Made by a program: the position numbers. A stretch of 27,160 nt of DNA from a virus (lineage: Duplodnaviria; Heunggongvirae; Uroviricota; Caudoviricetes): IMG/VR virus record IMGVR_UViG_2521172589_000011; one strand, 5' to 3'. The number at the start of each line of letters is the position of its first letter. Positions within the stretch are counted from its first letter, which is position 1. This document shows, one piece after another, positions 21,001 through 24,000 of this stretch.

Positions 21001-24000
21001 ATGCGCCTCAATGAACGGTTCAAAGATAGGATTAATCGAGGTCATTTTCCGAATAGAGTGCTCATCGGTGATGTTTCAATCTGGATTGCGCCGCCGTCTT
21101 TGCCTGTTAGCTCGTGATCAACCTTGTCGCGCCATTTATCCTTCTGTCGATTCTTAAGCCAGAAGATGGCAGCTGTTGTATCAGGCGGGTAATACTTCTC
21201 AAGCGGAGTTTCGACAATTCTGTTTTCAATAACACGAATATCGATGTCTGGAGCCACGAAGCCCATAGCGCGTTGATAAAGACGATCACTAACTTCTGCA
21301 TCAGCGACGGCCTTACCCTTTTTTATGGACTCCGAAAACTTAGGATAATCAAGCTTCCACTTGTTAATAGTTGACTCACTGACTTCAAAGAAATCAGCAA
21401 GTTCTGCATCGGTGTAGCCCAGCAAGCACAGTTTGCGTGCCTGTTCGGCATACGCCTCTTGATACTTTGTTGGGCGCGCCATGTTTATGCTCCTGTAGTG
21501 AACAGGTCTAACGCTTCCTTCGATTTACGCACCGCTTCGATAGTGCGGGTCGTGATATCTGAATTAGCGCCACCTGACTGGAAGTGAATTTTGAATAGCT
21601 CAAGCTTCAGCTCGTCAGTGCCAATGAATTGAAATGCTTCTTCTGCGGCTGCGTTCTGGTTCATGACCAGTTTGTAAATCTCTAACTGGAATTTCTGTTC
21701 TTCAGTCATGGGAATAATCTCTGCCATTATTGGCTCCGTTTATCCGTTAAAAGGGATATCAGTTAAGTTATCCCGTGTAGGGTATAAGCCATTATCAAAG
21801 CCACTCTGTAGGGAATGGCTTTTGTGATGGCGGTAATGACTCCAACTTATTGATAGTGTTTTATGTTCAGATAATGCCCGATGACTTTGTCATGCAGCTC
21901 CACCGATTTTGAGAACGACAGCGACTTCCGTCCCAGTCGTGCCAGGTGCTGCCTCAGATTCAGGTTATGCCGCTCAATTCGCTGCGTATATCGCTTGCTG
22001 ATTACGTGCAGCTTTCCCTTCAGGCGGGATTCATACAGCGGCCAGCCATCCGTCATCCATATCACCACGTCAAAGGGTGACAGCAGGCTCATAAGACGCC
22101 CCAGCGTCGCCATAGTGCGTTCACCGAATACGTGCGCAACAACCGTCTTCCGGAGCCTGTCATACGCGTAAAACAGCCAGCGCTGGCGCGATTTAGCCCC
22201 GACGTATCCCCACTGTTCGTCCATTTCCGCGCAGACGATGACGTCACTGCCCGGCTGTATGCGCGAGGTTACCGACTGCGGCCTGAGTTTTTTAAATGGC
22301 GGAAAATCGTGTTGAGGCCAACGCCCATAATGCGGGCGGTTGCCCGGCATCCAACGCCATTCATGGCCATATCAATGATTTTCTGGTGCGTACCGGGTTG
22401 AGAAGCGGTGTAAGTGAACTGCAGTTGCCATGTTTTACGGCAGTGAGAGCAGAGATAGCGCTGATGTCCGGCGGTGCTTTTGCCGTTACGCACCACCCCG
22501 TCAGTAGCTGAACAGGAGGGACAGCTGATAGAAACAGAAGCCACTGGAGCACCTCAAAAACACCATCATACACTAAATCAGTAAGTTGGCAGCATCACCA
22601 GTTTGAGCATCTGGTTAAAGAGTTATGCAACCGTGAAATCCTGTTATCTCAGGCGCAGACGCTACAGGATATTCAGCAGCATATCGAGACTTTAGGTGTG
22701 TCACTTAGCATGGCTATTGACCAGTTCGTGGAGAGTAAATCATGAGAGGACTTGCATACAATCCCGGCATTCTTCCGGCAGAAATGATTATTCGCCAGCG
22801 CGTAAAGCCAATGCCATCGAGAGAGGAATTGCTTAAGAGAAATTCTTTTCCATCAGTGAATCAAAACAAATATCTGAATGCGATGTGGCGTAAAGGAGGC
22901 AACCAGTGAGCAAGATTGACTATCAGGCACTGCGTGAGTTAGCAAAACAGGCAACACAGGGCGAATGGGTCGCATTCATTTCGCCGGGCACTGATACATA
23001 TGCGGTGCATACGCCGGGGGATGAACGTTGCGGAGACATTATCAAATGGCCTGGCTTTGACGGCCAGAAAAATGCAGAGAACAACGCAGAATTTATCGCA
23101 GCTTTCAACCCTAAAGTAGTGCAGGCACTGCTGGATGAACGGGAAAGAAACCAGCAATATATCAAACGCCGCGACCAGGAGAACGAGGACATTGCGCTAA
23201 CGGTAGGGAAGCTGCGTGTTGAGCTTGAGGAGACAAAATCAAAACTCAACGAGCAGCGTAAGTATTACGAAGGTGTTATCTCGGATGGAAGTAAGCGCAT
23301 AGCAGAACTGGAAGCACGGGAAATAAAACCAGCCAAAGGTGAAGTTCTTGTCGTTGTTTCTGGTTTTACTGGTTGCGGAAAAAGCGCCATTGCCGGGGAA
23401 ATAGAAATCGCGATGAAGGCTATTGGTGTACCGGTTCAGTGGACTAATGGCGATGCGGAAAAGCGCATGACAGGAGCTGACTGGCTGACAGCGATTGAGA
23501 TGTACAAACCAACAGTGCGCATCGTGGAAGTTAATGTGCCACGCGCCGCAGGCATTCGCATCAAAGAGGGTGAGTAGTGCGTGTGGCATGTATCGGCTTG
23601 TTACCGTACCCGACTCGTTTTTGGGCTTCTGCGCTAATTGCAAAGCCACATGTCCTGATAGCTGACAACATCATCCCGGCACCAAAGCGCCGCCATACCG
23701 GTATTGCAGCGGCACGACGAGCAGCAAAGAGACGCAGGAGAGCAAAACGATGAAAAACCGTAAAGCAAAGATTCTGTTAGCTCGCAGAAACGGTGTTGGG
23801 GTCTGGCGATGGGTGAGGATTAGTAACAGACGAGTGAGGTTGATGGGGTGTTGCGGGGTGATGGGTCACAGTTGTTGCAAAAAGCCCAGCGCGGCGCAAA
23901 ACCGCTGGAAAAACTACTTGCGGACTAAAGGAGAGTGATATGGCTATCGCTGCAAGTTACACCATGCATCTCTATTGTGATTGTCGCCAGTGTACGGAAG

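Follow-up and report, generated by a model that had tools for sequence, protein, structure and literature searches.

One IS1 copy bounds nested deletions of an argW-integrated P22/Sf6-like prophage in the Escherichia coli O104:H4 lineage

Results

The stretch of DNA analyzed here (IMG/VR record IMGVR_UViG_2521172589_000011; 27,160 bp, referred to below as the window) is a P22/Sf6-like prophage integrated at argW in the Escherichia coli O104:H4 lineage (enteroaggregative E. coli, EAEC), and by DNA matching its closest phage DNA is found in Lederbergvirus records (CUS-3, HK620, Sf6 and relatives). The virion genes of this prophage break off next to a copy of the insertion sequence IS1, and this copy, its flanks and the DNA lost beside it are the subject of this study.

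An intact IS1 without a target-site duplication

The IS1 element (IS1B-like, minus strand, 21832-22599) is an intact copy of 768 bp, as seen in its sequence, its Pfam matches and an inverted-repeat search. It has the length (about 768 bp) and the imperfect terminal inverted repeats of about 23 bp (GGTGATGCTGCCAACTTACTGAT / GGTAATGACTCCAACTTATTGAT) by which we recognized the IS1 family; the imperfect 23-nt repeats, IRR at 21832-21854 on the left and IRL at 22577-22599 on the right, are 78% complementary over 23 nt. The insA frame (22269-22544, minus strand; Pfam Zn_ribbon_InsA and HTH_Tnp_IS1) is followed by the insB frame (21847-22350, minus strand; Pfam DDE_Tnp_IS1), giving the family's order of zinc ribbon and helix-turn-helix, then DDE domain, with a -1 frameshift at an A6C motif (22287-22296) that reads GTTTTTTAAA on the plus strand and TTTAAAAAAC on the minus strand. 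RefSeq labels an identical copy as an IS1B-family transposase with programmed frameshift.

A simple IS1 insertion is bracketed by a direct target-site duplication of 8-10 bp, usually 9 bp. In the window, the left 9-mer TGTGATGGC (21823-21831), which abuts the left junction (junction A, 21831/21832), agrees with the right 9-mer AGTTTGAGC (22600-22608), which starts at the right junction (junction D, 22599/22600), at only four of nine positions, and a search for direct repeats bracketing the IS1 found none. No duplication is expected after a deletion, so its absence does not affect the identity of the element.

To the left of IS1, the late operon ends with TerS (21042-21482, minus strand; PHROG 309) and an 80-residue DUF2560 (orf80-like) protein (21485-21727, minus strand; Pfam DUF2560, E=1e-43), the final late-operon gene ahead of the breakpoint, whose start lies 104 bp from the IS1. 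To the right, the DNA begins within an early-left gene, of which the last 146 of 282 nt remain, lacking a start codon (22600-22745, plus strand). This fragment is 100% identical to the interior of WP_032159494.1, and the full-length gene matches Pfam DUF5405; DUF2737 and Ead/Ea22 genes follow it. The original prediction had described these same features (an intact IS1 between non-matching 9-mers, a virion module ending in TerS and an orf80-like gene, and a far flank consisting of a startless fragment of an open reading frame followed by early-left genes), and all of them stand. PHROGs attaches the label 'replication initiation protein' to the DUF5405 fragment; we rejected it as a replication gene, since the label is a family name and the gene encodes a 93-residue early-left protein that is truncated here and is not of the O/P type.

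An imperfect 19-nt inverted repeat (21788-21806 / 21813-21831) adjoins the IS1 on the retained side. RNA folding of the intact relative described below also gives a stable hairpin on the late-gene strand (L101 3277-3325; -18.1 kcal/mol, z = -3.6), with junction A ending its T-run. The hairpin resembles an intrinsic terminator upstream of DUF2560-terS and is terminator-like only; a consensus terminator scan gave no flag for it.

Comparison with an intact progenitor

E. coli NCCP15648 has an IS1-free copy of this prophage at the identical site, and we used it as the progenitor; its coordinates are given with the prefix L101. Window positions 18547-21831 correspond to L101 1-3285, and window positions 22600-27160 to L101 18001-22561, both at 100% identity. 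The two flanks of the IS1 are thus collinear in this exact IS1-free progenitor and lie 14,715 bp apart there, and the alignment maps both endpoints of the loss: L101 3286-18000 (31 genes, two tRNAs and part of the DUF5405 gene) has been replaced by IS1. The left 9-mer TGTGATGGC is native phage DNA that continues as AATAAAAAAGGCCGCC... in the progenitor, and in IS1-free P22-like prophages it is likewise native and followed by other phage DNA. Strain 55989 likewise has an intact, though mosaic, relative at this site.

These alignments bear directly on the simplest account of the locus, in which IS1 inserted into a naturally short mosaic prophage and point mutation later degraded its target-site duplication. 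P22-like phages are highly mosaic at these exact module boundaries, as this account would have it. However, a single intact prophage at the same site matches both flanks with 100% identity and has the 14,715 bp between them, which refutes this account; moreover, the right flank begins mid-gene, and the 9-mers differ at five of nine positions in DNA that is otherwise identical. We therefore give it practically no credence.

The genes lost were listed from the RefSeq annotation and Pfam. They comprise a DUF551 gene, a holin, a GH24 endolysin and an Rz-type lysis protein; tRNA-Thr and tRNA-Asn; the Q antiterminator, a Ser/Thr phosphatase and NinB/E/X/F/G/H; a replication protein and a DnaB-like helicase; CII, Cro, a LexA-family CI repressor and a weak N-like protein; a 322-residue coiled-coil protein, CIII, Kil, ERF and anti-RecBCD; and several hypothetical genes together with the first 136 nt of the DUF5405 gene. 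In agreement with what had been read from the window at the outset, Pfam and PHROGs find no holin, endolysin, Q, cI/cro or replication gene anywhere in it. The immC switch, replication, late control by Q and the lysis cassette all lie inside the deleted interval, and the element is therefore a remnant rather than a phage. The predicted loss of lysis, late-regulation, replication and immunity genes holds for all of these, with the qualification that immunity is lost only in part: immC is deleted and the immI-like region (5448-7056) is kept. The description of the element as structurally complete and regulation-deficient is borne out, the virion module being full length and the control genes gone. 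From position 1 to 21831 the window differs from the intact NCCP15648 prophage by two single-nucleotide polymorphisms and one 8-bp repeat unit.

Nested deletion states at one IS1 copy

A search of 5,426 complete genomes found the same IS1 copy in the prophage of 15 complete records of the O104:H4 lineage. The junction of IS1 with a right-hand breakpoint that we call B (L101 15838, in the coiled-coil gene upstream of cIII) occurs in exactly these 15, and 11 of them also have junction A. The IS1 is identical at 768 of 768 positions in the window, an outbreak strain (L002), 2009EL-2050 and FDAARGOS_348 (L100 and L103) and 1070/13 (L104).

Including the window, the copy is found in four allelic states. 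The state A-IS1-B, with 12,552 bp lost, is carried by the 11 records, which are 2011 outbreak strains and 2009EL-2071. In 2009EL-2050 and FDAARGOS_348 (C-IS1-B), an additional 16,749 bp are lost from the other side, to a breakpoint C in the tailspike gene (window 5082). In 1070/13 and its plasmid-free derivative (E-IS1-B), the additional loss on that side is 16,122 bp and ends at a breakpoint E in ant (window 5709). Only the window has the state A-IS1-D, in which the deletion extends 2,163 bp beyond B to D (L101 18001, in the DUF5405 gene). This window-specific loss takes the tail of the coiled-coil gene, cIII, kil, a 56-residue gene, erf, a 127-residue gene, anti-RecBCD and the 5' 136 nt of the DUF5405 gene. 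The original prediction of a single deletion is thereby refined: DNA was indeed lost at the IS1, in at least two steps, a first of 12,552 bp that the 2011 outbreak lineage has as well and a second of 2,163 bp found in the window only.

All five junctions (A, B, C, D and E) fall at the exact terminal base of an intact IS1, and both ends of the one copy have been used, in different strains. At B and D there is no microhomology, with no base shared on either side. No simple-insertion intermediate, that is, IS1 at A or B with a duplication, is present among the 15 records with the IS1-B junction or the 11 with the A-IS1 junction. For the gene interrupted at B, NCCP15648 alone has the 5' part at 100% identity, which indicates that the DNA next to B was lost from the outbreak genomes and not relocated.

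The remnant in 2009EL-2050 and FDAARGOS_348 (L100/L103 13355-15837) keeps intS, the acyltransferase gene and the tailspike gene without its 5' 265 nt. The prophage called 'missing' from 2009EL-2050 in PMC3486847 corresponds to this IS1-anchored deletion. In 1070/13 (L104 14808-15837) the deletion is an independent one, with its end in ant.

The IS1-D junction was found in none of the 5,426 complete genomes, and exact-pattern scans also failed to find it in viral, genome and metagenome contig collections; junction A was absent from the viral contigs in an exact-pattern scan. A right flank shared by the window with O104:H4 genomes was considered and rejected, because the 10-bp extension past the IS1 reported by megablast is a gapped chance match (CGTAGAGCA against AGTTTGAGC).

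Since none of the other public sequences searched contains junction D, it could be asked whether it is a product of assembly, with a real A-IS1-B arrangement and a second IS1 at D between which short-read repeat collapse skipped 2.16 kb; a multicopy element of 768 bp is too long for short reads to span. This explanation would still require a genuine IS1 end at D, and secondary deletions just as clean are seen at the other end of IS1 in closed genomes of the lineage. Many genomes that were finished independently share the 12.5-kb deletion, and an artifact could account for the window-specific step only. We consider it very improbable even for that step.

The window also differs from the 2011 outbreak clone in the portal gene. 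Position 19480 is C in the window, as in NCCP15648, 55989 and 2009EL-2071, and T in the 2011 clone. C is the ancestral allele and T is derived, and the window therefore stems from a genome of the O104:H4 lineage that did not simply descend from the 2011 outbreak clone. The window also differs from NCCP15648 at 3819 in the tailspike gene, where it has A, and at 9110 in an ejection protein gene, where it has G.

Discussion

Adjacent deletion by IS1 as the probable cause

In an adjacent deletion, one end of an insertion sequence attacks a target close by in the same molecule; the element stays in place, the intervening DNA is lost and no target-site duplication is made. Deletions of variable length that start from the tip of a retained element without target duplication are the textbook signature of this process for IS1, and the independent, nested deletions of differing length at one IS1 copy (A-B, C-B, E-B and A-D) follow that pattern. 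We think it likely that this one copy eroded the prophage through transposase-mediated adjacent deletions, by intramolecular transposition. In the first step, IS1 insertion and deletion in the intact prophage would have produced A-IS1-B; in the second, the IRL end would have attacked the site in the DUF5405 gene to give A-IS1-D, removing cIII, kil, erf, anti-RecBCD and their neighbors. The order from the intact prophage through A-IS1-B to A-IS1-D is the parsimonious one given the sequences at hand.

The process has been watched directly in the same lineage: in O104:H4 strain 1070/13, deletions adjacent to fliR and ending exactly at an IS1 inverted repeat arose spontaneously and repeatedly in laboratory culture (PMC11950199). 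For the mechanism, established since Reif and Saedler 1975, PMC11950199 cites that study.

The original prediction had left a choice between an IS1-mediated adjacent deletion and recombination between IS1 copies, and the pair of explanations is supported as a whole by collinear flanks in the progenitor and breakpoints at the IS1 termini. Under the second explanation, RecA-dependent homologous recombination took place between two directly oriented copies: a second IS1 would have entered the DUF5405 gene with a 9-bp duplication, 2.16 kb would have been excised and one hybrid IS1 left, and the 12.5-kb first step could likewise stem from such recombination. The product would be the same (one IS1, non-matching flanks, breakpoints at exact ends), and with 15-21 IS1-matching places per O104:H4 chromosome new insertions are plausible. 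However, recombination takes two events per deletion and would be needed four times (for B, C, D and E), no second IS1 lies inside the prophage in the 15 IS1-bearing records or the two intact relatives to represent a two-copy intermediate, and a one-step IS1-adjacent deletion has already been seen in this lineage in the laboratory (PMC11950199). We regard recombination as the less probable cause, with perhaps a minor share of the likelihood.

Three considerations weigh against adjacent deletion as we have presented it. Recombination of two directly oriented copies yields a sequence-identical product, so the mechanism cannot be proved from sequence. Junction D is represented by one window, the 2,163-bp segment may persist elsewhere in the source genome, and a collapsed IS1 repeat in the assembly could create the junction, which is a minor possibility. 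Finally, an equal number of events would be needed if the deletions had arisen independently from a simple insertion at A, a state that no record shows.

A broader extension of adjacent deletion is that the one IS1 acted as a two-ended deletion engine that has generated at least four remnant alleles in O104:H4, with a survival pattern shaped by selection, amounting to a stepwise domestication of the prophage and a fine-scale lineage marker. The intS and O-antigen acyltransferase genes always survive and the O104-specific tailspike usually does, and kil and the recombination genes are gone in the window. We hold this extension to be doubtful.

Remaining architecture of the prophage

At the attL end lies the gene for an intS-type tyrosine integrase (1-1158, plus strand; Pfam Phage_integrase, Arm-DNA-bind_3 and Phage_int_M). 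The argW gene adjoins it just beyond the window, as seen in the identical sequence of 2009EL-2050 and NCCP15648, where intS (WP_000958672.1) stands beside tRNA-Arg. An 8-bp tandem repeat of GTTTAATA (1145-1184) overlaps the intS stop codon (TAA 1156-1158), and the window and O104:H4 strains have five copies of it against four in NCCP15648; the stop lies in the second GTTTAATA unit, and copy number is therefore without effect on the protein.

The next gene encodes an AT3+SGNH acyltransferase (1375-3297, plus strand; Pfam Acyl_transf_3 and SGNH), a putative O-antigen acetylase that is present in all deletion states and is treated as such in PMC3303846. It is followed by a P22-like tailspike of 659 residues (3368-5347, minus strand; Pfam Head_binding at residues 1-113). 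The same source locates the 659-residue O104:H4 tailspike in this prophage remnant and shows its O104 specificity experimentally; the engineered pyocin AvR2-104.1 was built with this tailspike.

The immI-like region (5448-7056), recognized from Pfam Bro-N, P22_AR_C and Arc and from the RefSeq names in NCCP15648, holds the Bro-N/P22_AR_C antirepressor gene ant (5448-6392, minus strand) and a gene for an Arc/Mnt-type ribbon-helix-helix protein (6805-7056, plus strand; Pfam Arc). The P22/Sf6-type virion module (7893-21482, minus strand) is complete, with full-length Pfam matches to ejection proteins, a gp14-like protein, an Sf6-type tail needle, gp10, gp4, coat, scaffold, portal, TerL and TerS; by Pfam and PHROGs the window holds the whole P22-like virion gene set, from TerS/TerL to gp7/20/16 and the tailspike with its head-binding domain.

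The surviving early-left genes (22742-25383, plus strand; Pfam, PHROGs and RefSeq names) are those for DUF2737, Ead/Ea22, small unknown proteins, a dATP/dGTP pyrophosphohydrolase with DUF551, an Eag-like protein and a TorI-type excisionase (25183-25383, plus strand), and this segment is 100% identical in NCCP15648, 55989 and O104:H4. Within it, a single 209-residue open reading frame (24146-24775) joins the dATP/dGTP pyrophosphohydrolase and DUF551 domains in the window, and RefSeq divides the 100%-identical sequence of O104:H4 genomes into a small pseudogene and a shorter coding sequence. This is a difference in annotation, because the sequences are identical. The 15-bp attR core CTGCAGGGGACACCA (25457-25471, plus strand) matches exactly the 3' end of the tRNA-Arg gene argW (L102 1614-1628), and a host gene for a sucrose permease of the LacY family lies at the window end.

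Relation to known remnants

Decay of lambdoid prophages in E. coli O157:H7 is reportedly driven by IS629 (Ooka et al. 2009; Asadulghani et al. 2009). Similar to the pattern seen here, insertion of an insertion sequence and adjacent deletion lead there to polymorphism between strains and to defective prophages that keep some modules; the case differs in the element (IS629, of the IS3 family, as opposed to IS1), in the pathotype and in the type of phage. The KplE1 (CPS-53) element at argW of E. coli K-12 has the same integration-module layout as the O104:H4 element: intS and a TorI-type excisionase gene occupy opposite ends, and the att core is the 3' end of argW. KplE1 keeps little virion DNA, in contrast to the complete P22-type virion module of the O104:H4 element. 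P22 coat and scaffold genes directly abut early-left genes in an unrelated E. coli assembly (ENA ERZ27273564 contig_58; L113 1-1425), an arrangement suggestive of a further large internal deletion, in another P22-like prophage.

The 'prophage B' or 'D-ROD4' of the 2011 O104:H4 outbreak shares its argW-cscB site, its IS1 copy (768/768) and its left junction with the window, with 99.97-100% identity over the shared DNA. The window differs from it by the additional loss of 2,163 bp and by the ancestral C at 19480 in the portal gene. Scholl et al. 2012 (PMC3303846) describe the element as a deleted prophage remnant (D-ROD4 of Rohde et al. 2011) and note that 55989 has it complete, and Ahmed et al. 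2012 (PMC3486847) describe a prophage B with best match to Sf6 that is 'missing' from 2009EL-2050. The remnant and its main deletion had thus been published and are less novel than the original prediction assumed; the passages retrieved from PMC3303846 and PMC3486847 make no mention of an IS1 linked to the prophage.

The deletions resemble the classic IS1-adjacent ones, in the gal region (Reif and Saedler 1975) and at fliR in 1070/13 (PMC11950199), in having an intact element, a start at its exact terminus, variable reach, no duplication and a nested series. The fliR-adjacent deletions were watched in culture (PMC11950199), and those described here are deduced from natural isolates.

Consequences for the remnant and the lineage

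With the late promoter and Q, lysis, replication and the CI/Cro/N switch gone, the remnant should be incapable of phage production, and the virion genes, though intact, are probably silent. Among the genes kept, the acyltransferase, a lipoprotein and immI have possible host-level roles. The intS gene, the torI-like excisionase gene and the attR core are all retained, and excision of the remnant might still be possible, with expression of the excisionase doubtful and PL gone. The antirepressor has no matching repressor target in cis, and it could act on other lambdoid prophages in the same host, for example the Stx phage.

The element and its main deletion were known already and the mechanism is classical, so this is an ordinary case of prophage decay driven by an insertion sequence, one that adds no new mechanism or kind of element. 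What is new is the base-exact reconstruction, the one IS1 copy that links all the allelic states, and the extra step of 2,163 bp. The reconstruction explains why published comparisons have listed the prophage as 'deleted' for the 2011 outbreak strain but as 'missing' for 2009EL-2050, and the four junction pairs (A-B, C-B, E-B and A-D) are possible simple polymerase chain reaction (PCR) markers for O104:H4 sublineages. For an important lineage of pathogens, it offers a fully resolved case in which an inducible P22-like prophage has become a fixed remnant through the action of a single insertion sequence.

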